A DNA stretch of 63,741 nucleotides, filler included. It is 9 parts of 9 records of this genome, joined end to end, with 100 filler letters (N's around TTAATTAATTAA, not from the genome) between each part and the next. Parts side by side here need not be neighbours in the genome. Positions count along the whole stretch, not along the records: positions 1 to 5,205 come from SRR31147125_49087; 8 more parts are not named here. The stretch is one strand, 5' to 3'. The position numbers and the translations under genes are program-made. The notes below the pieces were generated by a model, which was not told the DNA's origin, searched no databases, and worked only from the letters and a program-made list of their open reading frames with translations. Positions within the stretch are counted from its first letter, which is position 1, and each line of letters begins with the position of its first letter. This document shows, in pieces, positions 1 to 36,523 of the stretch.

Positions 1-1
1 T

Positions 2-835
2 TTTACTCGATATAAAATGGCTTCTTTTAATCCATTTTCTATCTTTACCACGCTTACCACGTGCAAAAGCACGGTACACCCCCTTTTCTGTTATTATATA
101 ATAATCACCCAATTCTATTGGCCTAGAAGTTATTAATAGTACATGATAATGAATATGGCCATTTGTCGAGTATTCCATTTTCCAATATCCGCAGGCTTCA
201 TACTTACGCCCTATATACTGTAAGAATACTCTCAAATCCTCTTTGCTTTCTTCTATATCATATACCTTATAAGGGTAGGTTAGTGTCATTTCATAGACAC
301 ATTCCTTATTTACATTTTTCCAATCGAGCGCATAAAGAGACGTTTTCAACCTCAGTTGAGAACGCCTCGATAACCATTGAGAAACGCTACCACGTTTACC
401 CGGTTCACCGCCTTGCGCTCTATATTGAAAACCCCCATTTGTGAAACTTTTGAGCCTTAGACTTTCCCCTTTCAGGGTAAATGAATTTATTGAGTGTTCC
501 TCAAGGAACTGCTCAATTTCTTCATTCGTCAAAAACTCATAAGGGAGTTTATAATAATCATAAAGAGCTAATCGCTCTTGTAAATCGAAATATGTTATTT
601 CTTGATTTATAAACTTCCGCTCAAGCTCCATTGAGTAATAGTCTTTATCTATAACCATTTCTTCACCGTTGTGAGAATATGGTATATAAGACAAGCGCAC
701 GGCTTCCGCCGTGCCATCATTTACCGCCTCTCTCAGGCGATCTCCAACCCCTTTACCCGACCAATACGCTAACTTTTCCTTTTTCAGAGCGTATTGATCT
801 TGCGCTAATTTCAATTCAGCATTATAATTATCCAT
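2..835 (-). CDS. Rolling-circle replication initiator (HUH endonuclease Rep), 3'-truncated by the window edge; absent from the ORF track
   Basis: Manual translation: open from ATG 835 (alternative ATG 658) to the window start with no stop. Contains motif I-like YEMTLTYP (~272-295) and motif II WKMEYSTNGHIHYHVLL (~132-184). Motif III (YxxK) is not reached. Confidence 0.85.
   Translation of the reverse strand, partial: MDNYNAELKLAQDQYALKKEKLAYWSGKGVGDRLREAVNDGTAEAVRLSYIPYSHNGEEMVIDKDYYSMELERKFINQEITYFDLQERLALYDYYKLPYEFLTNEEIEQFLEEHSINSFTLKGESLRLKSFTNGGFQYRAQGGEPGKRGSVSQWLSRRSQLRLKTSLYALDWKNVNKECVYEMTLTYPYKVYDIEESKEDLRVFLQYIGRKYEACGYWKMEYSTNGHIHYHVLLITSRPIELGDYYIITEKGVYRAFARGKRGKDRKWIKRSHFISSK
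692..714 (-). promoter_or_regulatory. Candidate double-strand origin (nick site) of the rolling-circle element
   Basis: Minus strand reads GCACGGC-GGAA-GCCGTGC (perfect 7-bp GC stem) then GCTTGTC. CTTG resembles the pC194/phiX174-type nick core. It lies just upstream of the alternative Rep start at 658. Confidence 0.45.
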
Positions 836-868
836 GTACTGTAGTTCCTATGTGAACTCGATCTTTCC

Positions 869-899
869 ATCCTATAGGTGTTGTCACCACCTATGGGAT
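869..899. repeat. 12-bp inverted repeat (terminator or origin-associated hairpin)
   Basis: ATCCTATAGGTG-ttgtcac-CACCTATGGGAT (one G:T pair), followed by a T-run on the + strand. Confidence 0.55.
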
Positions 900-1010
900 A
901 TTTTTTTGCTCACGAGTCTAAATAAGTAACCGCAAAAAGTTACGTCCTATTATTACCTTGCAGTTTTCCGCTGCCGGAATACCAGGAGCGAAAAACATAC
1001 AAGGTTTTTT

Positions 1011-1250
1011 TTAAATACTTATTGTCTGTGTTTTTTCCTCCAATTCATAAATATCTCTAACTATATCTGCAAACCTTTCTGGTTTTTCTTGCCGGAATTC
1101 ACAAATAATTTTATTCACAGCTTTATAAGTTACAGTCATAGCCATTCCTATTTCCGGCATTAAACTTAAACGCTCTAATTCATGTAATATAAGCATTACA
1201 AAATCTAAATCACTCATACTCAATTCTAAAAATCCTTTATCTCCGTCCAT
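1011..1250 (-). CDS. Hypothetical protein of the mobile element
   Basis: 79-aa ORF with GAGGT RBS, co-oriented with neighbours. Confidence 0.6.
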   Translation of the reverse strand: MDGDKGFLELSMSDLDFVMLILHELERLSLMPEIGMAMTVTYKAVNKIICEFRQEKPERFADIVRDIYELEEKTQTISI

Positions 1251-1275
1251 TTTTACCTCAGTTTATTTCTCAATA

Positions 1276-1431
1276 TTAAATAACCTTTATATGCTTTATT
1301 TCAGAACTGTAAATAATCCTTTTTACCTTTCTTTTGAACTGTAAAAGAGCTATTAACCGGGAAATGCTCTTAATATACATAACTATGCATTTTCCCTTTC
1401 TTGTGGTTGCGACTAATTTATATAATTTCAT
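1276..1431 (-). CDS. Small basic hypothetical protein (51 aa, MKLYKLVATTRKGK...), absent from the ORF track
   Basis: Manual translation; GGAG RBS upstream; fills the gap in the minus-strand gene array. Confidence 0.5.
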   Translation of the reverse strand: MKLYKLVATTRKGKCIVMYIKSISRLIALLQFKRKVKRIIYSSEIKHIKVI

Positions 1432-1497
1432 TATTCTTTCTCCATATATAGTGTTGTTTTTTAAAGGATCTCAAAACTTATTGACACTAGATATGGC

Positions 1498-1659
1498 TCA
1501 GGCAGTAGAAGGGTATACAGTTACCTTTGTAAATTCTTTGAACATCATTAACGATTGTATTGATGCTTCATTCACTGCTTCTGGAAGGTTAGGAGCTTTA
1601 ATCTGTTTCTTGATTAATCGTCCGGCTAAATCGGTAAACTCTGCTATGTACCTATTCAT
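1498..1659 (-). CDS. Small hypothetical protein (probable start MNRYIAEF)
   Basis: Track ORF 1498..1689; the internal ATG at 1659 overlaps the stop of the upstream gene, suggesting translational coupling. Confidence 0.55.
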   Translation of the reverse strand: MNRYIAEFTDLAGRLIKKQIKAPNLPEAVNEASIQSLMMFKEFTKVTVYPSTA

Positions 1660-1843
1660 GTTCTGCCCCCGTGATATGGAGCAAAGCACCGCACATACAA
1701 CGCTTACCTTGATTGTTTAATACTACAGAATGTATTTCTGTGTAGACGTGATGACAAAAAGGGCAGTGCACTTCATATACATTACCTTTTTCCTGTTCGT
1801 TCCTAGCGTACTCGATCTCTCGATACCTCATAGTAGTTGTCAC
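1652..1843 (-). CDS. Small zinc-ribbon-like protein
   Basis: CPFC...CMC cysteine pattern in 63 aa; AGGTAG-like RBS. Confidence 0.55.
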   Translation of the reverse strand: MTTTMRYREIEYARNEQEKGNVYEVHCPFCHHVYTEIHSVVLNNQGKRCMCGALLHITGAEHE

Positions 1844-1858
1844 CTACCTAATTTATAT

Positions 1859-2131
1859 TTACAAGGCCAATTTTTTCTGCCTTGCAGTGATCTCTAATGA
1901 TTTTTCTATTTCTTCGATACTCATTTCTTCCAATACGTAATTCCTTACTACTTCCGAGGTCAATTGATTAATCAACCGCCGACTATATTTCGTATTCGAC
2001 TTAACTACATTTTCAAATTGATGTAGCCACAATTTTTTATAATACTTTTTTACATACCATTCCGGTATTTCTGGAAACCTTCTCCGAAGATTTTCTATAA
2101 ATAAATTCAGACCCTTGTTAATTTTTGGCAT
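1859..2131 (-). CDS. Hypothetical protein, first gene of the element's leftward operon
   Basis: 90-aa ORF with AGGAGG RBS at 2141-2146. Confidence 0.65.
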   Translation of the reverse strand: MPKINKGLNLFIENLRRRFPEIPEWYVKKYYKKLWLHQFENVVKSNTKYSRRLINQLTSEVVRNYVLEEMSIEEIEKSLEITARQKKLAL

Positions 2132-2213
2132 TTTATGTATCCTCCTGTGTAGTTTGGTCTATATTCCTTAGTTTCTACACAGCACATGCCTTGTCAATAG
2201 GGAATTATATCAT

Positions 2214-2241
2214 ACTTCAAATAATGTATATTCTGTCATAT
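2214..2241 (+). other. dif-like XerC/XerD recombination site (candidate att junction)
   Basis: ACTTCAAATAA-TGTATA-TTCTGTCATAT has the 11-6-11 layout. The spacer is identical to E. coli dif, the left arm resembles B. subtilis ACTTCCTAGAA, and the right arm has 3 mismatches to TTATGTTAAAT. Confidence 0.55.
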
Positions 2242-2263
2242 TTAGCCCACAAGGAATTAACTA

Positions 2264-3124
2264 ATGAATGATACCATTAAACATCTGGCAAACAACATAA
2301 AAACTGACAGCACATCATATACTGAAGCATTCTCACGTTTGTACGATGTATTAAAAGTATTAAGAAGTCCAGATGGATGTCCATGGGACCAAAATCAAAC
2401 TCAGGAAACATTTTATAAGAATCTTATTGAGGAATCATATGAATATATTCATGCATGGAATAAAAATGATTTGAATGAATGTGAAGAAGAACTTGGAGAT
2501 ATATTTCTTGTTACGATCATGCTCTCAATAATGCATGAAGAGACAAATCATTTCACACTAAAAAACATATTAGATACAACATCTAAAAAACTTATAAGGC
2601 GTCATCCACATGTATTCAAAAAAGATATTGAGTATCAAGCCGATAATCCTGACGAGGTAGTAACATTATGGGATTCTATAAAGGAAAATGTAGAAGGTAA
2701 AAAAACAAAAAAAAGTGACGCTTTCTCAAAAATACAAGATTCATTGCCAACTTTGCTTCAATCTGTCGAAATACAGAAAAAAGCCGCAAAACAGGGTTTT
2801 AACTGGAATAGCACAGAGGGAATTTTAGACAAAATCCATGAAGAGATTCGAGAATTGGATGAAGAACTCTCACAGGAAAATAAAAACAATAAAAAAATAA
2901 CTGAAGAATTTGGTGATATTCTGTTTACATTGGTAAATTTCGCTAAATATACAGGCATAAATCCCGATGAAGCACTCTTTCTTGCTAATCAAAAGTTTAA
3001 ACGAAGATATAATGCTATGCGAGATCTGATGGAAAAAGAGGGCTTAAAGGAAAATTCACCCATCTCCTTAGAAGAGATGGATGTTTACTGGAATCGAATT
3101 AAGAATTCAGAAATCGATATATAA
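2264..3124 (+). CDS. mazG: Nucleoside triphosphate pyrophosphohydrolase MazG
   Basis: LRSPDGCPWD, EEELGD, KLIRRHPHVF and a second EEFGD motif (tandem MazG domains). Confidence 0.95.
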   Translation: MNDTIKHLANNIKTDSTSYTEAFSRLYDVLKVLRSPDGCPWDQNQTQETFYKNLIEESYEYIHAWNKNDLNECEEELGDIFLVTIMLSIMHEETNHFTLKNILDTTSKKLIRRHPHVFKKDIEYQADNPDEVVTLWDSIKENVEGKKTKKSDAFSKIQDSLPTLLQSVEIQKKAAKQGFNWNSTEGILDKIHEEIRELDEELSQENKNNKKITEEFGDILFTLVNFAKYTGINPDEALFLANQKFKRRYNAMRDLMEKEGLKENSPISLEEMDVYWNRIKNSEIDI

Positions 3125-3137
3125 ACGGTTCTTCGAT

Positions 3138-5205
3138 TCAAATTTCGAATTCTATCTGTTCTGCTGAATAATAATCTCTGTAAAGTTCCTCATTCTCAGC
3201 AAATAAATTAATGCGTTTGACATCATATAAGCTGAGAAACTTGTATTTATCCATATGTTTACTTATAAGTTTCATAAGATTTACTTCTGACTTTAAAATG
3301 ATTGAAAACGTTCGACATTGATTATTATCAGCGATTTCAGTTATTTTCGTAACAATTATACCCAATCCCTCTGAAGAACATAAATCCTCTATAAGCTTCA
3401 AACCACTATTATCAAGTCCTTTAATAGTATATTTTGAAGAACGATATGCCGCTGTCAGTGAAACTTTTTGATGAGCTTGAAAGTAATACACCTGCCCTAT
3501 TTCAAATCCTTCAGCCAAATTATTATTTAATTTTGAAATAAGATCTTTAATGACAATTTTTTCTTTTTCTCGATTATTATCCGTGTCAGGAATATATATG
3601 CTCATTGTCATGAATTCATGCTCACCGGAAATACCCAGCGGAAGCGGTTGGGCAAATTCAAGAATTGGTTTTGGATTATACCCCTGAGTAAAAGCTACCT
3701 GGATCCCTGCCCGCTGCATAGCTTTCTCGAACAAAGACATAACTTGAATGTGTGATATGTAAATTGCTTTACCTTTTTTAGAGTACTCAATGAGGAGTTT
3801 TACTTTATTTTTACCATCTGAGGACAATTTATCAACATGCTTATGTCTTTCATTAATAAACTCTTCAGCTGATTTATTATCAGCTTTTATAGGTTTCACA
3901 TTCCCCTTTTTTGTGCATACACCGCAATTATGTGTGCAAATATCATCACAAACTGATGTTAAAAGCCGATTTCTGGCTTTATCATATTCTTTGAGTAAGT
4001 AACTGGTAGTTGAAGCTAATGTAATTGAATCCCAGGGCAGCAATTCATTTTCTGCAAATTCACTGCAAATTTCTTCTGCAACATTCCAATTCTGATCATT
4101 TATTACTTCATACCAAATATCTTTTTTGAAATATTCATCCCAGGCGTCAAGTCGTGCTCCTTATTATATGCATTGAGAATAATCTCTCCCACTCGTGCAT
4201 CTCCACGACTAATCATACCTTCAATAAAAGATATATCCGGATCATGATAACTCACCTTAACCTTTCTTACATTGGCTATGATGTTGTTTTTAAGTGCACT
4301 TAAATGTTCCCTTGCTTCACGCGGTTTCATGAGAGATGCCCATTGAAAAGCTGTGTGTGGTTTTGGAATGAATGTTCCAATATTTACATGGATCTGTATG
4401 CCTGTTGATCGCTGCACAGTTTCGAGGAAATCCGTTATTTCCTCAATCTCTTTATCTTGCTCAATAAAAGGAAGACCAGTCATGAAATAAAATTTAGCCA
4501 GCTTCCATCCCTTCAGTTTTGCACTTAAAATTATTTCAATAACTTGATCTATTGTGACAATTTTATTAATACTTTTCTGCCAGTCAAGTATCGGTGTTTC
4601 TATTGCGAATGTTAAACCGCTTTTTCTGACTGCTGAAATCTGTTCAAGAATTGATAATGAAAAACTATCAACTTTCAATGAAGGTAAAGAAAAGGAAATT
4701 CTTTTATCACTATATACGGAATTTACGTAGTACATTATTTCCTGAAGTGATTCATGATCACCAGAGGATAATGATGATAATGTGATATTTCTGTATCCCA
4801 AATCATTAACTAACTGGTCAACAGCATCAGAAACAGCAGAAATGTCACATTGCCGGAAAGGTTTATATAACTCTCCGGCATGACAGAACCGACATCCATT
4901 TGGACATCCCCGCATAATTTCAACTACGCCATTATCCTGAACAGGTCTTAATGTCGGTACAGTAAAATAGGAAAATTTATTTGAGTGTTTTTTATCACTG
5001 AAATCATTATCGATTGTTCTTACACTTTTATCCTTACCAGAGAACCAAATATAGTCCTGATTATGAATATGTTCAATGATTTCTGTACGTTTTGTTTTTT
5101 CCTGCTTCATTTTATATATTTGAGAAAGTAAATCCGGCAGTGCAGATTCTGCTTCCCCTAAATAAACTGCATCCAGGAAATTTCCAAAAGGCAGTGGATT
5201 TGTTA
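3138..5205 (-). CDS. Radical SAM protein (TIGR03960-like) fused to a TIGR03936-like domain; 5'-truncated, one frameshift near 4160
   Basis: EIMRGCPNGCRFC (CxxxCxxC) and FIPKPHTAFQW. Shifting frame at NAYNK restores GARLDAWDE and runs into the 3138..4043 ORF carrying YISH and FTQGYNPKP. Confidence 0.85.
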
Positions 5206-5305
5206 NNNNNNNNNNNNNNNNNNNNNNNNNNNNNNNNNNNNNNNNNNNNTTAATTAATTAANNNNNNNNNNNNNNNNNNNNNNNNNNNNNNNNNNNNNNN
5301 NNNNN
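5206..5305. other. Artificial contig spacer
   Basis: N-run / TTAATTAATTAA / N-run, 100 nt, stops in all frames. Confidence 0.97.
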
Positions 5306-5341: not shown

Positions 5342-6596
5342 ATGAATCAACTTTTTGAGTTTCTTCTTAAATACCGACAGATAAATATAACAATGCTTGA
5401 TCAAGCAATGGTAAGTGGCACAAGCTTTCTAACCGGAATCCTTTTGGCACGATTTCTTGGCATTGAAGAGTTCGGTCGATTCTCCCTTGCCTGGATGGTG
5501 ATACTTTTTGCAAATAGCATACAAATGGCCATGATCAATACGCCAATGATGTCTATCGGACCAAAACAATCAGAAAATCAAATCGCATCATATTATGGCG
5601 CTGTTATTGTTCAACAGGTATGTTTTACTACCATTTCATTTTTTTCATTCTTCTTGGTATTAACATCAGTGCGGCTGTTTTTCCTGAATGGCGTATTGCT
5701 CACCTCGCATTGCCTCTTGCTACAGTTGCTTTTTTTCCAAAATCAGGATTTTTTACGTCGTTTTTTTTACAATAAACCAGCCTACATGGGCGTTCATAAA
5801 CGATGCAATCAGCAACATTAGCCAGTTACTTTTAATAGTTGTCTTCCCTTTTATCACAGAGATCAGCACAAGTGCGGCATTGACGATCATTGCAGGGACA
5901 TCAGGTTTTGCCGTACTTATAGGAATTTTCTTTATGAGACATTATACACTACGATACAATCAGGTTGCCGAAGTTTTAAAGAAAAACTGGTGCTTTTCCA
6001 AATGGATAACCGCTTCAGCCATACTTCAATGGACTTCGGGAAACCTATTCATCATTACTGCCGGAAACATGGTTGGCCCAACAATAGTCGGAGCAATCAA
6101 GGCTTCACAAAACATCATGGGAATCACCCACATCCTGTTTCAAGGCCTGGAAAACATCGTTCCGGTCAAAGCAAGCTTTTATTACACACAGTCAGGCATT
6201 AGAGGGTTAATCGCATATTTAAAAAAAGTAGCTCTTTGGGGAGGACTTTTAACAGGCTGTATAGCATTTACAGCAGGATTAACACCCGAAATCTGGTTGA
6301 GCATTTTTTATGGAGATCAATACCAAAATTTTGGGTATATTCTACAATGGTATGCTGTGATATATATGCTTATTTTTTTTGGCCTTCTCCTTAGAACTGG
6401 GCTCAGGACTCTTGAAACGACAAGACCCATTTTCATGGCTTATATTCTGATGACCATTTTTGCTATGAGCCTTGCAAAACATTTTATAATTTGGTTTGAT
6501 ATTTCAGGAGTAATGTACGGAATATTAGGAACCCAAATTATTCTGCTGACAAGTCTTGCGGTATCAATGTTTTCAAACATCAAAAAGATAATTTGA
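5342..6596 (+). CDS. wzx: Wzx/MOP-family polysaccharide flippase, frameshifted
   Basis: DQAMVSGTSFLTGILLARFLGIEEFGRF N-terminus; many TM segments; split over ORFs 5342..5821 and 5688..6596 at T-runs. Confidence 0.8.
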
Positions 6597-6621
6597 TGGA
6601 TTCGAGAGGTTTACATAATTA

Positions 6622-6749
6622 GAGAGCTTTGCGTGATTAGAATATTCTTCAATTTAAGCATTTTAAGAAAATTTTGGTAGCTAAGGGAGAAAATAGCGGC
6701 GCGGCCACCAGACTGCTCACCCAAAACGCTATAGTCGTGCAAAGGTCTC
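6622..6749. mobile_element. 128-bp MITE or internally deleted IS with imperfect terminal inverted repeats, flanked by TA
   Basis: Left end GAGAGCTTTGCGTGATTA; right end (reverse complement) GAGACCTTTGCACGACTA; TA at 6620-21 and 6750-51; no ORF inside. Confidence 0.7.
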
Positions 6750-6763
6750 TACCTCACAATTAG

Positions 6764-8241
6764 GTGACTGATATTTTTATTATACCAAAAATCAAGGTAC
6801 TAAGTGCCCTTTCTTATCTGATACTTTCCGGTCTAACAGCTGCATTTATCGTTTACGCACCATTCTACCTTAACCTGGTTCTGATATTCAGTTTCGTATT
6901 CGGAGCAATAATCACCTACACATTTACCAGGGGGAGCAAATATTTTAATGAAAATTTCATTCCCCCTTTTATAACAATTATGCTGGCAATATTTATGGTA
7001 TCTCAAAACATAATTGAAATAACCGGCAATAATTATATTGACGAAATGCTTTTTATCCCCTTTTCATTGTGTGCCATCATTTCTGGGCTCAGCGGCCGCA
7101 CTTTCGTTGTATCGAAAAGACTAAAAAAAATATGTTTTTTACTAACTATGTTCATTCTGTCAGGCGGTATCTCGACCGTTCTAAATCAAGTACCTATACC
7201 CGTTGCCATTAATGGCGGGTTACTGATTTGTAAGCCTATCATCATTTTCGCCATGTTCTTTTTCTTCAGCTTTACTGAAACGTCCAAACAAAAACTGTAT
7301 GTGAATATAGAACGCTTTTTTATTACCTTTAGTATTATTGCTCTATTCTGGATGCTTTTTTTGAAATTCTGCTATCGTATAACCCGATTCAGGGAATTTC
7401 AATAAAACCCGATTCTTTCCATGGGCTATCAGCGTATCGATCATTTTTCAGACATCCAGGAGCATACAGCGCAATGATGTTTATTGGATCTATTTTCTTC
7501 TTTTCTTTGTATTTAAATAAAAGACAAAAAAAAGATTTAATACTCTTAGTCGTCACAACCCTGGGGCTTCTATCTAGCCTCAAAGCAAAAACTATTATCC
7601 TTCTGCCGATCAGTTGCGGTATTATATACGCCCTTTATGCTTTTCAAAAAAACAAACATAAATATACAAATTTTGCCTCCAAATTATCCTTGGGTATAAT
7701 CATAGGATTCGCTTTGATATCAACAGGTTTTTATTTCACAAAGGACAAGCTTCTTTTTTACTCCACAACGGAAAATGTTCGGAAAGAAATCCTGGTTACT
7801 TCTTTTCAGGTGTCTAATGAGAACTTAGGACTGGGAGCGGGCTTTGGAAGGTATGGTAGTGCTGTCAGTACAAGATACTATAGTCCTTTGTACTATAAAT
7901 ACGGGCTCTATACCTTGTACGGCTCCTCTGTTAAGAAATCTAATTTTATTACGGATCAATGGTGGGCCTGGTATATTGGGGAATCCGGCATAATCGGAAT
8001 GCTATTTTTTCTTTCTGGCCTCTTTATAGTTTGTCTTGAACTATCCGAAATTTCGCGCCGGAACCAATTAAAAAATCAAAACCTATCCATCCTATCTTAT
8101 ACTGCTTTGGGTGGACTGATCTATGGGATAGGCAGTGGTTTTGCTGCAGCCAGCCTATCAAGTCCTCCGGCGTCTTATTTTATCATGGGTTTATCTGCCT
8201 TGGCCATGAACAGGCATAAAAACACGCCTATTTTTAATTAA
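6764..8241 (+). CDS. Wzy-like polymerase / O-antigen ligase-like membrane protein, frameshifted
   Basis: Multi-TM ORFs 6764..7405 and 7474..8241; GLGAGFGRYGS loop motif; polysaccharide cluster context. Confidence 0.7.
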
Positions 8242-8527
8242 TTTAAGAGGCTTTGGCCTTAGAAAACAACCACAATTCAACCACATGGAAGACGTTCAAT
8301 TATTAAGAATACAGACTTATCCGTTGAATCCGTTCCAATCTGAAATTCTTAATGATAACATGGATATCGATATAAACTTCTAAACAGGATTAAATATATA
8401 AGGCGCAAAATTATAAATAAACATTCCATCCTATTGAGATGCGTTTTTTGTGCCAATTACAGTTACCATTAAAGCTCAGTTCAAATTTTGGGTGGTTTTA
8501 ATTTAAAAACGAGCCTAACATGAAATT

Positions 8528-9169
8528 TTGCAAAACAAAGATATGAAAAATTATGAAGAATTAAATATCGGTCAATCGATAAGCGAAAAGGACCCGTTCA
8601 CAGAAGACAGGTATAGACTTTTTAATAAATACTTGCCTAAAAACACAATAAACATCCTTGATATAGGCTGCAACACTGGCCGAGGAGGTCGGATACTCAA
8701 AGGATTCGATGGCAGCAGAGTAATCTCGGGTTTGGATGTGGTTAAAAAGAGACTAAAGCAATTACCCCGGGACATCTATCAGAATAACATCTATGGCTCA
8801 TCCACTGATATACCCGTAGAAGACAATTCCTATGATGCCGTTGTTGCAGGGGAATTTATTGAGCATTTGTACCCAGTGGATGTAGATAAAACCTTATGTG
8901 AAATATTTAGAATTCTGAAAATAGGCGGTAGACTATTGCTAACCACACCGAATCCTTGTGACATAAAAATGAAATTAAGAGGAGGCAGTGTTCTTGGTGG
9001 TGCTCATGTTTCACAACACTATCCTGCTTCACTTAAGATCAAATTAAAAATGATCGGGTTCAGTAAAGTCCGAATAAAAGGCAGTGGAAAGGTAACAAAA
9101 TATATTAGTCATAAGGTCCCTTTTCTTTATATATATGGAAGTTATTTAGCAATGGGAGACAAATACTAA
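8528..9169 (+). CDS. Class I SAM-dependent methyltransferase
   Basis: ILDIGCNTGRGG, EFIEHL, LLLTTPN. Confidence 0.9.
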   Translation: MQNKDMKNYEELNIGQSISEKDPFTEDRYRLFNKYLPKNTINILDIGCNTGRGGRILKGFDGSRVISGLDVVKKRLKQLPRDIYQNNIYGSSTDIPVEDNSYDAVVAGEFIEHLYPVDVDKTLCEIFRILKIGGRLLLTTPNPCDIKMKLRGGSVLGGAHVSQHYPASLKIKLKMIGFSKVRIKGSGKVTKYISHKVPFLYIYGSYLAMGDKY

Positions 9170-9268
9170 ACCCTTATTAAACCGTTCAGCTGTGGGTAGA
9201 GCTGATCCCGGCATCAACAATTGAGATCGCCGGTTTTGTTGTTGATACATACGGGGTAAGGCCCTTTA

Positions 9269-9837
9269 TTGCCAACCAGGAAAAAAATGAAAATAGCTCT
9301 TAAATTCATCGCCTTCTTGCTTTTTGTATGTAGGGGAGTAAAAAACAGAGCACTAAGATTTATTCTTAAGCATCAATTTCGTCGTTGTGGAAAAAGAGTC
9401 AAGTTTCGACACAATGACATATTCACTTATAAAAATATAAGCATTGGAAGCGATGTATATATAGGTCCAGGTGCAATGTTCCTTACGAGCCAATCTGAAA
9501 TTCATATTGGCAAAAAAGTATTATTCGGTCCTAATGTCACCATTATAACAGGGAACCATTCAATCGAACTTAAGGGGAAATATATGTTTGATATAAAAGA
9601 AAAAAAAGAGGTGACGATTTGCCTGTAATAATTGAGAAGGATGTTTGGGTGGGAAGTGGGGCCACAATACTAAAGGGTGTTACAATTGAAAGGGGAGCGG
9701 TTATTGCTGCTGGGGCAATTGTAAATAAAGACGTGCCTGCTTATGCAATTGTTGGAGGTTCTCCGGCAACAATCCTGAGGTTCAGAGGCGATAAAGCGAT
9801 GATATTGGAACATGAAACAAAACTATATGGAAATTAA
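9269..9837 (+). CDS. Hexapeptide-repeat (LbH) O-acetyltransferase, frameshifted near 9600
   Basis: [46 protein letters not shown]; break at a long A-run. Confidence 0.88.
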
Positions 9838-11089
9838 AATGAATCTTAGGGCAAGGAGGCCGGACTCTGAGGATAAAACCATCTTAATTTCTGCCTATAG
9901 CTGCGATCCCGATGGTGTTTCAGAATCGCTTGCTGCATTTAATTATCTTAAGATCCTGATTAAAAACTACAATATTATACTTTTAACAACCCATGCCAAT
10001 AAACAACAAATACTGAATTTTTACAAAGGCAGATGTATTACAAATCTGGAAGTAATTTCCTTTCCGGATAAATATCCTTTCAGGCAAAGTAAACTAATAC
10101 ATGAATCCTTAAAAATCGGCTATTTTATTTTTAACTGGCGAATATATAGGTATTTAAAAAAGCATAGTAGATTGATTGAGCGAAGTGATATTTTGTACCA
10201 TAAATCCCCATCGGGATTTAGATACTATTCACTTCTTTACAAATTCAATAAACCATATATTTTTGGTCCAACCGGTGGGGGCCTCCATCCACCGAAAGAA
10301 TTAAAAGAGTTCTTCAAGAAAGAACATAGTATTTTCAAACTCAGAAAATTAGACCAATATATTTTAAAACTGCCTGTATATAAAAAACAGTTTAATGCCG
10401 CAAAAAAAATATTGGTTACATTGCCATATGTAAGGCATATTTTAGGGAATGCATATTGTCAAAAATATTCTGAATTGCTTGACACAGGCATTGATACTAA
10501 AATTCATCGCCCCATTCCAGATATGCAGAAGCGCCACCCCCTGTCAATAATCTATGTTGGCAAACTCACCCGGTATAAAGGTGCAGAATTATTGATCAGG
10601 TCAGTCTTGAAAATACGCACAAGCGTTCCTTTTATAGTTGATATTTATGGTGATGGAGAGGATCGAGAATACCTTGAAACCCTGGTTGAATCTTTAAGCT
10701 TAAGCCGGAATGTGACATTACATGGATACGTTAACAGGGCGGTTATCCCTGAAATTTATACGAAAGCTTCTATTTTCTGTTTTCCGACCATTACCGAAGC
10801 CAGCGGAAACGCTCTGCTTGAGGCCATGAGTTATTCTTTGCCAATTATAACTGTGAACAATGGCGGCCCCCAGTACATGTGTCCGAATGAAGGTACATTT
10901 AAGATTGCAATCTCAACTCCGGAGACAATGATAGAAAACATTGCCCGTGCACTGAAAATACTTATTGAAGATAAAAAAAAGAGAATCCAAATGGGAAGAG
11001 TCAACAGACAGCACTGTATCGACAATTTTGATTGGACGGTCATAGAGAATAATCTGTTATCTTTTTTTAAAGAAGCCCTTAAATCATGA
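9812..11089 (+). CDS. Glycosyltransferase family 4
   Basis: [31 protein letters not shown] (EX7E). Confidence 0.9.
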
Positions 11090-12092
11090 AGAGAATCGTT
11101 CTAATCGGTCCGTTTGAGGGCCCAAAAGGCGGAATCAACGTTCATTTAAACAGGCTGTACGATTTATACACCAATTCAAATAACCATAAGATGTTGAGAA
11201 TAAATGATGGGAAAACATTTTCCTCAGAAATGCCAAATATAAGAAAGCTTGAAATCCTTCATTTTTTCAAAGCATTAATATCGGCAGATATCGTCCACCT
11301 CCATTCTTCATTATGGTACATGATGATCATTTACATCTTAATAGGCAAATTATGCTTTTCAAAAATAATTGTAACCATTCATTCATGGGGATATAAGCCT
11401 TTCCAAAAGAAAATCCTTAAAGTATTATTTTTAATCTGCTCTAAACTTATTGTTGTAAATTCAGAAATCATGAAAGAAATAGGTTTAGAAAAAAAAGCAT
11501 TATCCAATACGCATTTATTCCTCCAAAAATAGAATTTGAGCCAGATTTACCTATAGAAATAAAGAAATCGATAAAGATTAACCGAATAAAAGGGAATCAT
11601 ATTCTGATCGCAAATGCGTGGCAATTATTCATATACAACAATCAAGATCTGTATGGTCTTGATTTGTGTATTGAGTTGGCTAAAATTTCAAAACGAAAAA
11701 ATTCCAAACTATACATCATATTTGTGGTAAGTTCGCCAAATGAAATATTAAAAAACTATCAACGCATTGTTAGCAAAGAGGGCTTAACTGGCCAAATATG
11801 CATCCATTCTGGCAATCTTTCATTTCCAAAGCTAATAGCACAAAGCGACATAGTTTTACGCCCAACCAACAAGGATGGCGACGCAATAACTATCAGGGAA
11901 GCCCTACACCTTAATACACACGTAGTAGCTTCAGATATAATTGATAGGCCTTTAGGAACAATCGTATTTAAAAACAGAAATGTTGATGATTTATATTGTA
12001 AAATCATGGAAACTTTAGAAAAACAACCTCCACATTTCCAACATCAGGTACAGAATTATAAAACCATTTATGATGGTATCTATTCTTTATAA
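11086..12092 (+). CDS. Glycosyltransferase family 4, frameshifted near 11490
   Basis: GPKGGINVH N-terminus and LRPTNKDGDAITIREAL C-terminus in two ORFs. Confidence 0.8.
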
Positions 12093-14709: not shown

Positions 14710-16103
14710 CGGTAAGCCTCAACAGCTATTGATTTATGAATTTCCGTAGAAAAATCAATACCATCGTCGCTTCCATACTGAATTCCAAGACCGGCAAGCA
14801 TATCTCCTTCAGCAGTAATACCAACACCTGTTCTACGACCTTCCTCGGCCTTCATCTTAATGTTTTCCCAAAGTTTCTTTTCAACTCTTTTAATTTCCGC
14901 ATCTTCCGGATCAGAGTTAACTTTCTCTAGTATTGCATCGATCTTTTCAAGTTCCAGATCGATAATATCGTCCATAATTCTTTGTGCACTGTGAACATGC
15001 TTTTTGAATAAATCCCAATTAAACTTTGCTTCTTCTGTGAATGGATCTTCAACATAGCTATATAAATTAATTGCTAACAATCTACAGCTATCATACGGAC
15101 ATAGTGGAATCTCACCACATGGATTAGTCGATACCGTTTTAAAACCAAACTCAGAATAACAATCAGCAACCGATTCTCTTGCAACCGTATCCCAGAATAA
15201 AATTCCCGGCTCTGCTGATTTCCAAGCATTATGCACAATCTTCTTCCAAAGGTTTTGCGCATCTGTTTCCTTTTTATATATAGGATCTTTGCTTTCTATT
15301 GGGTATTGCTGTACATAAGGTGTTTTCGTTGTAACAGCTTTCATGAAATCATCATCGATACGAACAGAAACATTAGCTCCCGTTACTTTACCTGCTTGTA
15401 ATTTAGCATCAATAAATTGCTCAGAATCCGGATGTTTAATTGAAATACTTAACATTAAAGCACCTCTACGACCATCTTGAGCCACCTCGCGTGTTGAGTT
15501 TGAATACCTTTCCATAAATGGAACAACACCGGTAGATGTTAATGCACTATTTAATACAGGACTTCCTTTGGGACGAATATGTGAAAGATCATGACCTACC
15601 CCTCCCCTTCTTTTCATAAGTTGGACTTGTTCCTGGTCAATTTTCATAATAGCACCATACGAATCAGCAGAACCTTGATTACCAATAACAAAACAATTAG
15701 ACAGTGAAGCAATTTGGAAATTATTACCAATACCAGTCATAGGACTTCCCTGTGGAACAATATATTTAAAGTCTTTAAGAAGACCGTAAACCTCATCTTC
15801 TGACATTGGATTAGCATATTTCTTTTCAACGCGTGCAATTTCCTTTGCAATTCGTCTATGCATATCATCAGGGGTACGCTCATATAAATTACCAAATGAG
15901 TCTTTTAATGCATATTTGTTTACCCAAACAGTTGCAGCAAGCTCATCTCCCTTAAAATAATCTTTTGATGCGCTAACTGCCTCATCGAACGAATAAGTTT
16001 TTTGGTTTTTTGTATCGCTATTATTAGCAGAATTTTCACTCGATTTGTCGTCCATTACATTGTTATTCTTGTTCTTGTTGGCTACTAATTCGTCTGTTTG
16101 CAT
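14710..16103 (-). CDS. nrdJ: Class II (adenosylcobalamin-dependent) ribonucleotide reductase, 3'-truncated
   Basis: SLSNCFVI, RRGGVG, STNPCGEIPLC, GRRTGVGITAEGD. Confidence 0.92.
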
Positions 16104-23858: not shown

Positions 23859-24736
23859 TTATAAAGTATGACTATACCATTTTCTACATGGAAATGATTT
23901 TTGTCCAATGTTTACCAGTGTAGAAGCTTGGCTAAGTTCAATAAATTCATCAACACCATGTTCAACCATAAGTCTTTGAATATCTCGCCATTGTACAGGT
24001 TTAACGATGTTGTCTATTAGATCTTTCTTTATAAGCTCCTTGTTTAGAGTAGCTCTTCCAGTACTATTCATGAGGTATCTGCATCTAGGAGTGTTAAAAT
24101 TAATTCTCTCGATAAACAACTGTACCTCATCAATAATTGGGCTCATCAATATACAATGAGAAGGCACGCTAACGTTTAATGTCGATATTTTTATAGGATA
24201 GTTTTTTTTGATATTATCGTGTAGTGCAGATAATTGATACTTATCACCTGTTACAGTGTTTTGTGTATCTGAGTTGATATTAGCGATGTATATATTATCA
24301 AATTTAGCTATAAACCTCTCTAGGACAGAAAGATTTAGTCCGTTGACAGCAATCATCTTATATTTTTGGAGTGTAGTGTTTGCATCAGCTTTCCACGTAG
24401 ATTTACTAATTTTAGTCCATCTACGAAAGTTATTGCTCCAGAAGCAACAGCGGCAGCATAAGTTCCAACGGAGTGCCCTGCTACAAACTTATAATTAACT
24501 TTATTTTCTATCTCTTTTAGATATATAATTTCGGATAGATAGATAGCTAATTGAACATTTTGATTATTCTTTAGAGCTTCGCTACTATCTAATTCCTCAA
24601 TATTTACTCCTAGTACTTCACTTGCTACTTTTTTAACCTCATCATAATGCTCAGAACACATCAGCTCTCTAACCATACCTGCATATTGATACCCCTGCCC
24701 TGTAAAGAGTAACGCTCTATTTTCCAATGTCAACAA
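23859..24736 (-). CDS. mdcH: Malonyl-CoA:ACP transacylase of malonate decarboxylase (FabD-like), frameshifted near 24360
   Basis: FTGQGYQ, VAGHSVG, ANINS, VSVPSH, PVQW. Confidence 0.85.
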
Positions 24737-28416: not shown

Positions 28417-30066
28417 AAAGCCCCCAACGGCGGGCGTTTCCAGGTTACCACCAAATCACCGCTTACGGGTGGTATGGGGGAAGGAAACAGCGGCGGCACA
28501 TTCAGCACAAAACTGAAAAGTACTGGTCTGGACGGCATTATCATCAAAGGTGCGGCTGACCATCCTGTACGCGTTGTCATTCAGGATGATGAAGTATCGA
28601 TTCTGGATGCCGCGGATGTATGGGGCCTGGACACATTCACTCTTGATGATCGAATGGTAGAGTGGTACGGGAAAAAACAGGGGACTCTCTGTATTGGTCC
28701 AGCCGGGGAAAACCTGGTAAAAATTGCCTGTATCATGAATGATGGTCGGGATGCCCGAACTCCAGCCAGAACCGGTATGGGAGCTGTAATGGGCTCCAAA
28801 AATCTGAAGGCTATCACTGTTCTGGGAAGTAAAACCACCCCAACCGCCCATCCTGAAGAGCTGAAAAAGACTATAAAAGAACTTATGCTGAGAATTTCCA
28901 AGGATTCACCGGGAATGCGGAATTATGGCACTGGTGAAGCTGTTGAGTTCATTGAAGCGGCCGGAGATTTGCCGATAAAGAACTGGCAGCAAGGTCAACT
29001 GGCAACTTGTGGTCAAATTTCGGGCATCACTATGACCGAAAGCGGACTGCTTAAGAAAAGCTATTTCTGTGGTCAGTGCCCGATCGGCTGCGGACGGATC
29101 GTCGAAATAAAGGAAGGACCATATGCCTGCGAGGAACAGGGCGGTCCGGAATATGAGACGATCGGCATGCTGGGATCAAATTTAATGGTGGATAATTTGG
29201 AAATAATCCAGATGGGCAACAGTATCTGCAACAAATTGGGAATGGATACCATTTCAGCCGGATCGGCTGTCGCTTTTGCCATGGAAGCTTATGAGGCCGG
29301 AGTTATCACCAGAGATATGATGGACGGGCATGCGGCCCGCTGGGGTAACGCGGATGATATCAAATTTTTGCTGAACGCGATCGCTAAGCGTGAATCCATT
29401 GGGGATTTACTGGCTGAAGGCACTCGCGCAGCCGGCAAGAAGCTGGGAGGCATAGCCGAGGAGTTCTCGGTAGATGTCAAGGGATTGGAATTCCCGGCCC
29501 ATGATCCACGTGCCGGCAGTACCATGGCCCTCGCCTTCGCAACAGGTACCCGTGGAGCCGACCACTGCAATGCAAATACCCACCCTGCAGCTCTGACAGG
29601 CGGAACCAGTGGCCATGGATTCATGGACCCAATGAAATATGATCGTTTCGACTTCGGGGATGATACCGTAAAACTGACCAGAGCATTTCAGGATGCTTGT
29701 GCTATGCTGGATTCCATGTCCATCTGTAAATTTGTGCTGTTTGTGCTTGATGCCGATTTCCTCGATTCCTATCTGAAATTGTTCAAGGAAATCGTAGGAT
29801 GGGAGATGACCAAAGAAGAGTGGATGGAAGCCGGTGACCGGATTGTAAATCTGAAACGTGCTTACCAGGTACGCTGCGGTGTCTCACGCAAAGATGACAG
29901 ACTGCCGCCGCGCATGACAAAACGCAGATTTGATGGCGGAGCCGGTGATCATGTACCGAAGGTGGAACCGATGCTGGATCTCTATTACGCGGCTCGGGGC
30001 TGGGATACCTACGGACGGCCTACAAAGGAGACGCTTAAACGCCTGAAGCTGGACTGGCTGGGATAA
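28417..30066 (+). CDS. Tungsten-dependent aldehyde:ferredoxin oxidoreductase family protein, 5'-truncated
   Basis: TKSPLTG, IGPAGENLV, GMGAVMGSKNLKAI, CGQCPIGC, GPEYET, LGMDTIS, HDPR, RGADH. Confidence 0.92.
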   Translation, partial: KAPNGGRFQVTTKSPLTGGMGEGNSGGTFSTKLKSTGLDGIIIKGAADHPVRVVIQDDEVSILDAADVWGLDTFTLDDRMVEWYGKKQGTLCIGPAGENLVKIACIMNDGRDARTPARTGMGAVMGSKNLKAITVLGSKTTPTAHPEELKKTIKELMLRISKDSPGMRNYGTGEAVEFIEAAGDLPIKNWQQGQLATCGQISGITMTESGLLKKSYFCGQCPIGCGRIVEIKEGPYACEEQGGPEYETIGMLGSNLMVDNLEIIQMGNSICNKLGMDTISAGSAVAFAMEAYEAGVITRDMMDGHAARWGNADDIKFLLNAIAKRESIGDLLAEGTRAAGKKLGGIAEEFSVDVKGLEFPAHDPRAGSTMALAFATGTRGADHCNANTHPAALTGGTSGHGFMDPMKYDRFDFGDDTVKLTRAFQDACAMLDSMSICKFVLFVLDADFLDSYLKLFKEIVGWEMTKEEWMEAGDRIVNLKRAYQVRCGVSRKDDRLPPRMTKRRFDGGAGDHVPKVEPMLDLYYAARGWDTYGRPTKETLKRLKLDWLG

Positions 30067-30069
30067 TTC

Positions 30070-30345
30070 ATGTGTGTTAAGTTTTTGTTCTCCAGTTATT
30101 TCTCATCTATTTTGGGAACTGATGAAATTGAGTTATCAGTACTGGATGGTTCAACTATATCCGAAACCATTCAGTTTTTCCTGGATAATAATCCAGAGTA
30201 TCATCAACTGCTGAAAGAGCGTAAGACTTTTCTACTGGGTGAATTCCGGGCAATTTACACGCTAGATGGAAAAATGGTGACAGGAAAACATATACTACAG
30301 GATGGGGACAACCTGAAGATACTGAAAGCTTATATCGGCGGTTGA
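30070..30345 (+). CDS. MoaD/ThiS-family sulfur carrier
   Basis: 91 aa ending LQDGDNL...IGG, directly after the AOR gene. Confidence 0.8.
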   Translation: MCVKFLFSSYFSSILGTDEIELSVLDGSTISETIQFFLDNNPEYHQLLKERKTFLLGEFRAIYTLDGKMVTGKHILQDGDNLKILKAYIGG

Positions 30346-30692
30346 CTGCGATTCCGTTTGACTGCCCCGGCAATAATACCGAATATGCCGACAAGTGCAA
30401 TCGGCAACCCGAAAATCAGGGTCAGCGCGCCATCTTCCCATACCCAGAACACCAGGCACCACTGCAGTCCATACCAAATAAGCCATATGATGCCTGCAAT
30501 CAACTCCCGCTTCCAGAGCAGAATATATCCCGTAAGAAAAATGAGAAACAGCAGGTAGACCGAAATATCCGCAAAGGATACATCTCCGGACAGCGAAATT
30601 CCTTCCCCGATAAGAAAAAGAATGTATCCCACGAAAGCGATAGATCCAAGGATCCTGAGGATACGTCTGCTGCTTGTCATCCTTTCACTCAT
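30330..30692 (-). CDS. Small 4-TM hypothetical membrane protein
   Basis: Hydrophobic ORF (track 30330..30797); probable start MSERMTSS. Confidence 0.6.
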   Translation of the reverse strand: MSERMTSSRRILRILGSIAFVGYILFLIGEGISLSGDVSFADISVYLLFLIFLTGYILLWKRELIAGIIWLIWYGLQWCLVFWVWEDGALTLIFGLPIALVGIFGIIAGAVKRNRSQPPI

Positions 30693-30927
30693 GAATGTAA
30701 GTATATACCCTCTTCGGCGAAACACGAATAGCGTAGTGAGAAAATAGGTATTTATGTCCTCACTGCCCAAAAAAACCGGCAAACTAGGATTGTTCACCGG
30801 TTTCCGGGGTTACCATAAACAGCTCAGGATCAGACAGATGCTGCACATACAGCGTATAACTGTATTCTTCAATCTCCTGCCCTATCCAAGCCAGTTATTT
30901 TATCTTTGTTCTAATCAAACTTTAGCT

Positions 30928-31498
30928 CTATGAACTGAAGGAAACGTTGGGATTTGACCAACGCAGACCATCATCATCGTGGAATGTTCCATACTCGGTC
31001 ATAATACCGCCCTCAGGACCGCCTATGACAAAATGGGGTGCAGTAAGTCGATTCAGATAACGTACATCACCAACTTCTACCAGCTGCCATTTCCCGGCAG
31101 TGATATGTTCCAGCTGACTTTCCGGAATCTTTGCTGTAGTGGGGGGTTTCTGCGTCACCTTCACCAAAGAGGTACAGACTACCGTAGCGTATATGCCATG
31201 CTTCCATTTTTGCCGGGCCTTTGCTGGTTTTTACATGTGCGTGCTCGGGAATCATCTGACCGGGCAGCATAAAGATGTCATGGCCGAAATATCCGCCCTC
31301 CTGTTCATTCACCCAGAAGATTCCTGCCATGCCGACTTCAGGGAACTGACCAAGACCGAAATCCTGTGTCCAGAAGTTGTCACCCCTCAGGGCGTCACAC
31401 ATGGGAAAATGAAATCTCTCAAACATTTCATAGTAGAGTTCCTTAGCTTTCTCTGCCTGGAATACTCCGTCAACATAATACTCATTGTCCAATGCCAT
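30928..31498 (-). CDS. D-lyxose/D-mannose isomerase-family cupin, frameshifted near 31140
   Basis: DFGLG, LPGQMIPEHAH, KMEAW, then PHFVIGG, EYGTFHDD, WSNP in the second frame. Confidence 0.75.
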
Positions 31499-31523
31499 TG
31501 CTGTTACCTCATAATAGAATTTT

Positions 31524-31559
31524 AAAAAAGCATCTGTACCGGCTTGGGCACAGATGCTT
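31524..31559 (-). terminator. Intrinsic terminator downstream of the sugar-binding-protein gene
   Basis: AAGCATCTGT...ACAGATGCTT stem with A-run on + (U-tract on -). Confidence 0.65.
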
Positions 31560-31673
31560 CGGTATAGAATCAGTATAAACCAACTGTTACGGTTTTTACC
31601 AGAAACAATTCCTGCGATAATTTTGCATTGCAGGAACTACTGCAACCAGAAACAGTTCTTTAATGGTTATTCG

Positions 31674-32627
31674 TTAGAACTGTTTTCCTACCATACCCGG
31701 AGCATTGTCTGCTCTTACGATGCGTCCATAGTTGGTCATACGTGTCGGGATATCAGTTTCTCCAGCTACCAGTTTGTCGATTACATCAAAAGCTGAGGGT
31801 CCGAAGAATGGTGAACATTCAACGATTCCGTAGATTTCTCCAGCTACGATTGCGTCGATACCATCGTTTTCACCGTCAATTGAGATGATCTGTACATCTA
31901 CACCAGGAACCATACCGGCAGCTTTCAGTGCTTCGATTGCACCAAGAGCCATCTCATCATTATGAGCGTAGATTGCTTCAATATCAGAGCCTTTAGCCTG
32001 AATAATGTTTTCCATTACTTTCTGGCCATCAGATCTGGTGAAATCAGCTGTCTGTGACGCGATAACTTCCAGTCCAGGATAGTTCTCAAGACCTTCCATA
32101 AATCCCTGCTGTCTCTCTTCTGCACATCCTGAGCCCTGTGTCCCAGTAAGCTCAACGATCTTTGCTGTTCCACCGGTAGCTTCAGCCATCAGTTCGGCAG
32201 CCTGCTGACCTTCCCATACGAAGTCGGCAGCGATGTAGGTTACATAATCTTCACCAGGAACACCTGCGGCGGGTCGAGCAATAACGATTACCGGGATTCC
32301 GGCTTCTTTTGCTGACTGCAGCGCGGGAACTACTCCATAGTCTTCTCGTGCGTTTATAATCAGATAATCAACCTGCTGAGCAATAAGGTCTTCAATATCT
32401 GAAACCTGTTTTGCCGAGTCACTCTGTGCATCGGTCCAGAGTAATTCATAGCCTCTTTCAGCAGCTGTATCGATTATACTGTTAAGTTCCGCAAGACGGA
32501 ATGGCATATTCGTTTCCATTTCCGAGAACCCTACTCTAATTACTCCATCATCCTCGCTTTCAGCGGCAGCAAATACCATACCGGCAGCCAGAACAAGCCC
32601 GATCAGAACCATTAATACCTTCTTCAT
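31674..32627 (-). CDS. Sugar ABC transporter substrate-binding protein (RbsB/YtfQ-like)
   Basis: Signal peptide, VGFSE, TDAQ...KQVSDIEDLI, YAHNDEMALGA, ISIDG. Confidence 0.92.
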   Translation of the reverse strand: MKKVLMVLIGLVLAAGMVFAAAESEDDGVIRVGFSEMETNMPFRLAELNSIIDTAAERGYELLWTDAQSDSAKQVSDIEDLIAQQVDYLIINAREDYGVVPALQSAKEAGIPVIVIARPAAGVPGEDYVTYIAADFVWEGQQAAELMAEATGGTAKIVELTGTQGSGCAEERQQGFMEGLENYPGLEVIASQTADFTRSDGQKVMENIIQAKGSDIEAIYAHNDEMALGAIEALKAAGMVPGVDVQIISIDGENDGIDAIVAGEIYGIVECSPFFGPSAFDVIDKLVAGETDIPTRMTNYGRIVRADNAPGMVGKQF

Positions 32628-32761
32628 TGGTTCTCCTCCTTACTTGGTTTACGTTAATACTATCATATATCTGTTGATTGTCAACAATTAATTGACGATT
32701 ATTTATAAATTCCACCAATCAGCAGTATATCCCTACTCTATTGATCGATTACAACTCATTA

Positions 32762-36242: not shown

Positions 36243-36297
36243 AGCTTTCCTCGCTGATATGATCGCTTTTTGCTGCTGCATTTAGTTGCTAATTCTC

Positions 36298-36523
36298 AAT
36301 TGTTAACATTTATATGCATTCTATATCCTCCACGCGCCCGCGTCAATGAAAAAATCAGCAGATTTGTTGTAAAGATAGGAAGATATGTGATAAATTCTTT
36401 TATTATTGTGCAATTACTCCTATATATTGAGCGTGTCGGCGGTTTACTATGGTATATGTATTTTCGATAATAATTAATTGTTAACATTTATACTTTGACA
36501 AAAAACCATTCTTGGCATAGTAT
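36298..36523. promoter_or_regulatory. Divergent sigma70 promoters with duplicated GntR/FadR-type operator
   Basis: Minus: TTGACG-N17-TAGAAT (36346-36318). Plus: TTGACA-N17-TAGTAT (36495-36523). Identical AATTGTTAACATTTATA at 36298-36314 and 36476-36492. Confidence 0.75.

Follow-up and report, generated by a model that had tools for sequence, protein, structure and literature searches.

The DNA analysed here, a stretch of 63,741 bases referred to below as the window, carries at its left end part of a rolling-circle element that meets host DNA at a sequence resembling dif, the chromosomal site recombined by XerC and XerD. Positions 1-2241 probably represent the mazG-proximal end of an integrated, integrase-less rolling-circle provirus located in the dif site of a Spirochaetia chromosome; given this position, the element probably borrows the host recombinases for its integration. 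The original prediction, a candidate Xer-exploiting element, was supported by a related element at the same address in a piece of a metagenome contig (L081), which has a dif-like site at both borders and no recombinase, and by a genome in which the site appears to be empty. More tentatively, and with somewhat more doubt than belief, we suggest that the two elements form a sequence-orphan lineage of tailless, double-jelly-roll, rolling-circle proviruses targeting the Spirochaetia dif (TGTATA spacer and TTCTGTCA XerD-side arm), a site kept upstream of mazG in hosts with proteins of only 38-54% identity.

Rather than a single molecule, the window is a set of nine contigs joined by eight artificial linkers (N44-TTAATTAATTAA-N44), and no overlaps were found between the contig ends. 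The whole finding is carried by contig 1, which has 5,205 bp (positions 1..5205), and therefore the left end of the element is out of view; position 1 is probably a contig end. The DNA is AT-rich, with a G + C content of 35%.

A dif-like 28-mer (ACTTCAAATAA/TGTATA/TTCTGTCATAT) had been predicted at the point where element genes give way to mazG. The analysis confirmed it at that place, ending 22 nt upstream of mazG (Table 1). Candidate sites were scored with a dif matrix made from five published sites, those of E. coli, B. subtilis and Frankia alni (PMC3025954) and those of Sulfurimonas and Sulfurovum (PMC2731167). The 28-mer ranked first of 125,396 window positions with 17.62 bits, its own reverse orientation ranked second, and the best unrelated position scored 11.87 bits. 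Real DNA from 80 unrelated genomic loci (1,296,719 bases), returned by a genome-contig scan with mazG at 35-42% identity and mostly from Bacteroidota, served as control; no position in it reached 17.6 bits and one exceeded 15 (17.5 bits). The scan revealed no close relative and no empty site among the 80 loci returned. The single control position of at least 15 bits (L019, ~16527, minus strand) lies 5.8 kb from mazG in a Bacillota metagenome-assembled genome (MAG), and may be the true dif of that genome.

The 28-mer is identical at 20 of 28 positions to the dif site of E. coli and likewise at 20 of 28 to that of B. subtilis, and reference sites from different phyla share 14-20 of 28 positions with one another. 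The left, XerC-like arm on the element side scored +5.14 bits and has 8 of 11 bases in common with B. subtilis. Conservation in dif is strongest in the XerD site and in the inner portions of the two arms (Carnoy and Roten, PMC2731167). An exact 24-mer scan of metagenome contigs gave no match. Seven matches to an exact 18-mer were found in IMG/VR, none accompanied by Rep or capsid relatives, and were treated as chance; in the small IMG/VR contigs L087 and L088 the 18-mer lies inside a long open reading frame (ORF).

The gene read in the original prediction as an HUH replication initiator (Rep) was established as such by family profiles. The truncated protein matches Pfam family PF23343 (REP_ORF2-G2P) with an E value of 7.1e-6 and 26.7 bits, below the curated cut-off of 27.8, and weakly matches a PHROG for rolling-circle replication initiation (E 0.007). 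Exhaustive searching found 178 relatives at E<=1e-3, nine at E<=1e-10 and none at E<=1e-30, the best being P0001 (E 4e-23, 34% identity). PF23343 was matched by all 26 relatives scanned and above the cut-off by 22 of them; since the window protein is cut, we take it as a truncated member of the family. The protein contains motif 1 (TLTYP) as well as the HUH motif (HIHYH), and T184 and T186 of the former and H229 and H231 of the latter are invariant in a 16-sequence alignment of Reps. Two near-invariant tyrosines, in alignment columns 548 and 552, fall C-terminal of the cut. Full-length relatives have 350-590 aa, so that about 150-220 rep codons are expected beyond the contig end.

Relatives P0001, P0003 and P0004 are encoded on contigs of 151, 52 and 90 kb, respectively. 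P0004 is among the closer relatives, and its cluster includes proteins labelled 'uncultured Sphaerochaeta sp.' whose contigs measure 3.1 and 2.7 Mb. The large size of these contigs indicates that Reps of the P0001, P0003 and P0004 type are chromosomal. A word-based homologue search with the window Rep gave no matches, tblastn against plasmids gave one weak match from Streptomyces (E 1e-3), tblastn against phage records (INPHARED) gave none, and scans of IMG/VR with the window Rep, with P0001 and with an alignment of Reps (A2) revealed no relatives. If the reading as a provirus is right, such elements, without relatives in the IMG/VR scans and the INPHARED search, are probably missed in spirochaete genomes.

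L081, found with the alignment of the closest Rep relatives, is a 21.3-kb piece of a 207,613-bp Sphaerochaetaceae-like metagenome contig. Its Rep is 34% identical to the window Rep over 175 aa (tblastn), and its gene arrangement is that of the window: Rep diverges from mazG, and radical-SAM and DUF2344 sequences lie beyond. The host proteins of the window and L081 are 38% (mazG), 33% (DUF2344) and 54% (radical SAM) identical. A repeat search in L081 revealed a direct-repeat family (D4) with copies at 9263-9286 and 15951-15974, at the element borders, and there lie the two sites named A and B in Table 1. These ranked first and second of 42,568 L081 positions under the dif matrix and stand exactly at the borders. 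In sites A and B, as in the window site, the XerD-like arm points to mazG. A core of 16 nt is common to A and B; the window 28-mer has 18 contiguous nt in common with site A (ATAATGTATATTCTGTCA), the run in common with site B is 14 nt long, and the part common to all three is the spacer and the inner XerD-side arm. Between the sites lie 6.7 kb with 12 ORFs on a single strand, and scans with Pfam, PHROGs and NCBIfam found no recombinase family among them.

Likeness between the A and B regions beyond the XerD-like arm gave a score of 46, against up to 38 in shuffles and little above that of the core, and no claim is made of it. A third D4 copy in L081, at 15463-15486, is part of a palindrome without a dif score and was dropped as an attachment site. 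The perfect 13-bp palindrome there (GACACTGTACACC...GGTGTACAGTGTC, 15463-15500), downstream of the gene for the 451-aa spike-like protein, has CTAGTTGACA in common with the border site.

The genes of L081 converge on the site, with rpoD, a zinc-ribbon gene and the radical-SAM gene to its left on the plus strand and a 278-aa gene, a TPR gene and cmk-S1 to its right on the minus strand. The GC skew is +0.082 in the left flank of the site and -0.062 in the right flank. Gene convergence and the change of skew fit a replication terminus.

The original prediction had named two ways in which the border might mislead: the junction could be a chimeric join, or the 28-mer could simply be the mazG promoter. 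One public sequencing run matches the stretch, in 13% of words, with contigs that cover 12 of 30 bins and no joints seen; a 151-nt contig from that run crosses 2146-2296 with zero differences. The support from this run is weak, and the equivalent join is found in the independent 207-kb contig, which comes from another organism. No sigma-70-like mazG promoter overlapping the 28-mer was found, and site A of L081 is upstream of no gene on its strand.

Comparison with a sister genome suggested an unoccupied site. The rpoD, radical-SAM, mazG and cmk-S1 genes of L081 cluster at >=90% with genes of a 'Sphaerochaetaceae bacterium' MAG (MHC1693328, -330, -331 and -334), and the 278-aa gene beyond the L081 element clusters at the same level with MHC1693332. 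In that MAG, mazG (MHC1693331) and the 278-aa gene (MHC1693332) thus have consecutive accessions, and no protein of the MAG belongs to the clusters of the nine L081 element proteins looked up (Rep, the capsid-like protein and seven more). On these two grounds the sister MAG appears to have the site empty. The spirochaete-like host proposed for the window element is supported by the radical-SAM gene: among 120 homologues listed, 48 carry an organism label, and 45 of these belong to spirochaete taxa (Spirochaetia, Spirochaetales, Treponema, Rectinema, Sphaerochaetaceae and others), with a best identity of 53% among the matches listed.

These data suggest the following course of integration. The circular replicative form of the element would carry an attP that mimics dif in at least its spacer and XerD-side arm, and the host XerC and XerD would recombine this attP with dif. 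A dif-like site would be left at each border, that at 2214-2241 being the one nearest mazG, and recombination in the spacer would make the borders hybrid: the left, XerC-like arm of 2214-2241 would come from the element, and the right, XerD-like arm would be chromosomal. The element would then replicate from its HUH Rep. In L081, the host dif may be reconstructed from the left arm of site A and the right arm of site B; the left arm of the attP so reconstructed scored -2.77 bits, against +2.67 for the chromosomal arm, and its spacer and XerD-side arm copy dif. If attP does copy the XerD-side arm and spacer and not the XerC side, either XerD-first catalysis or an activation factor among the orphan ORFs would be implied. 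Neither the window nor the L081 element gave a match to an XafT- or RstR-like family. For the window element, we infer the Xer catalysis, the left end and a single-stranded DNA (ssDNA) genome.

In the L081 element, Rep is followed by an 84-aa ORF and a 274-aa capsid-like protein. A word-based search with the 274-aa protein found one other homologue cluster (53% identity). That cluster (protein P0275) is labelled as from a Peptostreptococcaceae MAG with contigs of <=4.8 kb, and either the family crosses phyla or a small contig was mis-binned. No sequence match was found in phage records (tblastn, INPHARED) or the PDB. A feature search of the Atlas, taken as a lead only, gave near clusters with PM2 P2_N/P2_C in 17-18% of their members (score 0.93, 197 common features). 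The AlphaFold model of the protein, built from two sequences, is poor, with a predicted local distance difference test (pLDDT) of 49.9. Foldseek with this poor model gave the FLiP major capsid protein as the best match (5oac_A, E 1.1e-7) and the PhiCjT23 capsid protein at E 8.7e-6, with capsid proteins of PRD1, PR772, STIV and PM2 lower down. In VIA-align, residues 1-231 of the model reached Z scores of 10.0 with PRD1 P3, 9.4 with FLiP (180 residues), 8.2 with PhiCjT23 and 7.0 with PM2 P2. From the modelled fold, the 274-aa protein is likely to be a double-jelly-roll capsid protein. The L081 element also encodes a 451-aa protein with three copies of a 278-nt repeat, which matches tail-fibre-like PHROGs; such a repeat-rich sequence fits a spike.

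In L081 there is no match to a Zot family at E<=0.1 and, in the 13 ORFs examined, no Walker A motif, and the visible part of the window element has no Zot/pI ATPase. The relative is therefore not an inovirus of the CTXphi type. The original prediction had set the window element beside CTXphi, VGJphi and TLC; the comparison holds for an integrase-less, rolling-circle element at a dif-like site, but not for the kind of virus, as the relative looks tailless with a double-jelly-roll capsid and lacks Zot. With a likely double-jelly-roll capsid and no Zot in the relative, the nearest known analogues are the PhiCjT23/FLiP-like prophages and not CTXphi. The capsid type of the window element would be the same by extrapolation from the Rep homology and the position shared with L081.

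The PhiCjT23-like prophages of Flavobacterium, tailless membrane-containing ssDNA phages, are described by Kejzar et al. 2022 (PMC9719478) as elements of 6,021-8,407 bp without integrase. Their initiator lies near one end with the capsid gene closely after it, a spike gene is present, and each end bears a 28-nt dif-like site, taken there as a sign of integration by XerC/XerD. The L081 element is like these in its size of 6.7 kb, a Rep near one end, capsid-like and spike-like genes, the lack of an integrase and its two dif-like borders. It has three traits of the PhiCjT23/FLiP type: no packaging ATPase, a size within 6-9 kb and a capsid-like gene closely after Rep. The systems differ in their hosts, Spirochaetota here and Bacteroidota there, and in their initiators, which in that account (PMC9719478) are of the Geobacillus/Cellulophaga-phage 'replication initiation factor' type and here are HUH proteins of PF23343. 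They differ further in that the window itself shows Rep and small ORFs only, and that the L081 capsid-like protein is without sequence similarity to phage records or structures. FLiP (Finnlakeviridae, MF361639) has a circular ssDNA genome, a rolling-circle Rep, a double-jelly-roll capsid and no packaging ATPase, and it is in the capsid protein of this phage that the L081 274-aa model finds its best Foldseek match. The FLiP Rep, however, belongs to PF05144 and is not homologous by profile to the window Rep family (hhalign probability 0.2% with the family alignment), its genome has 9.2 kb, and we noticed no report of dif integration for FLiP. By analogy with L081, the missing left part of the window element would probably carry the rest of rep with its tyrosine motif, genes for a double-jelly-roll capsid protein and a spike, and another dif-like site; with such a left part the element would be a tailless phage like PhiCjT23 and FLiP.

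Other elements share the mode of integration. CTXphi, VGJphi and TLCphi of Vibrio and the dif-type PM2-like prophages replicate by rolling circle, have no integrase of their own and integrate at dif through the host XerC/XerD, and one border regenerates a dif-like site (PMC12715192, PMC5357621, PMC4246890); among Vibrio inoviruses and satellites such integrative mobile elements exploiting Xer (IMEX) are well known (PMC5357621, PMC4246890). The dif-type PM2-like tailless prophages of Vibrio carry full-length dif mimics or one-armed mimics of 17 bp made of an arm and the spacer (PMC12715192), and the 16-nt repeat of L081 resembles these published attP sites. Unlike the Vibrio IMEX phages, the L081 element has no Zot/pI ATPase or Walker A motif, its host is a spirochaete, and the common part of its sites is the spacer with the XerD-side arm. 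The microvirus-related proviruses of Bacteroidales are also small, with ssDNA, a rolling-circle Rep, no recombinase and dif-like flanks, and in one of them, BMV7, the contig likewise breaks off within rep (Krupovic and Forterre 2011, PMC3091885); in L081, by contrast, no microvirus capsid family was detected, and the capsid-like protein is of another fold class. Integration of ssDNA prophages at dif outside the Proteobacteria is already published for Bacteroidota (PMC3091885, PMC9719478). For spirochaetes, no Xer-exploiting element was found in the literature within the terms and library searched.

Several observations weigh against placing a Xer-integrated provirus in the window. A single border of the window element is visible, the contig stops inside rep, and no relatives of the L081 element genes were found on the other contigs of the window. 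The score of 17.62 bits is borderline against the maxima of 60 first-order simulated sequences (median 12.97, 95th percentile 17.1, top 17.8). The third base of the XerD-like arm is C, as against A in all five reference arms, and the arm deviates at its outer bases too, with 6-8 of 11 matches to the references. The sequencing run behind the junction-spanning contig is possibly the source sample itself, and hence not independent support. In L081, the change of GC skew cannot be separated from gene orientation and was seen over 21 kb only, the empty site of the sister MAG was deduced from accession order and not from DNA, and unrelated rows of the VIA-align comparison came near Z 7.6, but over ~90-100 residues only. 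No xerC or xerD genes were found in the window, in which the sole tyrosine recombinase is at 52902-54443. This gene (plus strand, at least 513 aa, cut by the start of its contig) is of the phage-integrase type; it scored 102, 77 and 62 bits with the XerA, XerC and XerD models, far under the cut-offs of 220-335.

That the unseen left part encodes a recombinase of the element's own (tyrosine integrase, serine integrase or transposase), with the likeness to dif incidental or dif the target of that integrase, is unlikely. The left part of the element does lie beyond the contig, the phage-type gene just described stands at the start of another window contig, and integrase-encoding variants occur beside dif-type ones in known tailless phages (PMC12715192). 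Yet no sequence overlap ties the recombinase contig to contig 1, and the complete relative in L081 combines dif-like sites at both borders with the lack of a recombinase in its 12 ORFs. It is quite unlikely that the element is a decayed or immobile remnant, left by an old insertion through Xer and reduced to its regulatory genes and a portion of rep. A remnant would agree with the mere 2.2 kb that are visible, with small ORFs that are orphans and with nothing more of the element in the window, but the rep frame is open for 278 codons to the contig end, a ribosome-binding motif stands before every ORF, and the break is the contig end and not a stop codon or deletion.

In some ssDNA elements, integration can be brought about by HUH enzymes, and the Rep itself or another non-Xer route could have inserted the element at an origin-like sequence, the repeat then being the nick or target site of Rep. 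The hairpin beside rep would suit such a route; we hold it very improbable, since the sites are the top dif-matrix matches in the window and in L081 and have the 11-6-11 layout of dif, and since the left arms, which are not part of the repeat, score as dif too (site A +2.67 bits, window +5.14 bits). An origin by chance or artefact, as an AT-rich mazG promoter resembling dif or a chimeric contig of a plasmid or phage fragment and host DNA, is scarcely credible. The G + C content of 35%, the borderline score against simulated sequences and the low-coverage assembly speak for it; against it stand the same Rep family, host genes and core in the independent 207-kb metagenome contig, the failure of all 80 real loci to reach the window score, the clean run contig across 2146-2296 and the lack of a promoter-like site.

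If integration at the Spirochaetia dif is true, Xer-exploiting lysogeny, and probably also the PhiCjT23/FLiP tailless type, would extend to Spirochaetota. A concrete candidate for the Spirochaetia dif would also be at hand, with a genomic address upstream of mazG. Should the two elements form the lineage suggested above, they would be, for that phylum, the first group of ssDNA-type phages in print and its first Xer-exploiting element. The mechanism is already known, and the gain would be in range and annotation, not in principle.

Table 1. Features of the window and of the related locus L081
Feature	Positions	Strand	Basis or remark
Window: HUH rolling-circle Rep, N-terminal 278 aa, cut by contig end	2..835	-	Open-ended ORF listing and PF23343
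Window: 12-bp stem-loop followed by a T-run, just upstream of Rep start	869..899		Terminator-like match
Window: orphan ORF, 79 aa, GAGG ribosome-binding motif upstream	1011..1250	-	ORF listing
Window: orphan ORF, 51 aa	1276..1431	-	ORF listing
Window: orphan ORF, 63 aa	1498..1689	-	ORF listing
Window: orphan ORF, 63 aa, CxxC...CxC pattern like a zinc ribbon	1652..1843	-	Weak zinc-ribbon matches, E 0.008-0.03
Window: orphan ORF, 90 aa, AGGAGG upstream, first element gene beside the attachment site	1859..2131	-	ORF listing
Window: dif-like 28-mer	2214..2241	+	Top match of dif matrix
Window: XerC-like arm	2214-2224	+	11-6-11 layout
Window: spacer TGTATA	2225-2230	+	11-6-11 layout
Window: XerD-like arm	2231-2241	+	11-6-11 layout
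Window: host mazG (nucleoside triphosphate pyrophosphohydrolase), transcribed away from the element	2264..3124	+	PF03819, E 8.4e-30; NF007113, 261 bits
Window: DUF2344/TIGR03936 gene	3138-4043	-	Host flank
Window: radical-SAM gene, cut by contig end	4103-5203	-	Host flank
Window: artificial linkers	5206-5305, further ones at 14610, 21648, 28317, 39121, 45343, 52800 and 58247
L081: radical-SAM/DUF2344 fusion	5624-8215		Adjoins mazG
L081: mazG	8383-9210
L081: site B, TATTAGTTAAG/TGTATA/TTCTGTCAACT	9265-9292		dif matrix, 16.52 bits
L081: Rep	9884-11428		Divergent from mazG
L081: spike-like protein, 451 aa	13939-15294		Three copies of a 278-nt repeat
L081: site A, TAAGTATATAA/TGTATA/TTCTGTCAACC	15953-15980		dif matrix, 21.65 bits

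Two pieces of the window, 28417-39120 and 39221-45342, have G + C contents of 47% and 42%, respectively, against 32-38% elsewhere, and carry a sortase and an NlpC/P60 protein; from the deviant G + C content and these genes the bin may be mixed. The genes for an acyltransferase (Acyl_transf_1, malonate decarboxylase cluster) at 23859-24736 and for GMP synthase at 47656-49210 each appear to be broken into ORFs that adjoin or overlap, which suggests frameshifts or low-coverage assembly errors.

The visible part of the element had been predicted to hold five small orphan ORFs and no integrase, and both statements agree with the ORF listing and the family scans. No significant family was found for the five ORFs in Pfam, PHROGs or NCBIfam, and family scans including Pfam and NCBIfam found no recombinase on contig 1, where 2.2 kb of the element are visible. 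Each of the five ORFs is preceded by a purine-rich ribosome-binding motif; the true start of that at 1498..1689 is probably an internal ATG after a G-rich motif of this kind. The stem-loop ahead of the Rep start may serve as an origin of replication or as a terminator. At 874-888 and 1830-1844, ahead of rep and of the zinc-ribbon-like 63-aa ORF, stand the copies of a short, imperfect direct repeat (ATAG..GTTGTCACC), and the stem-loop and this repeat could be origin or regulatory elements.

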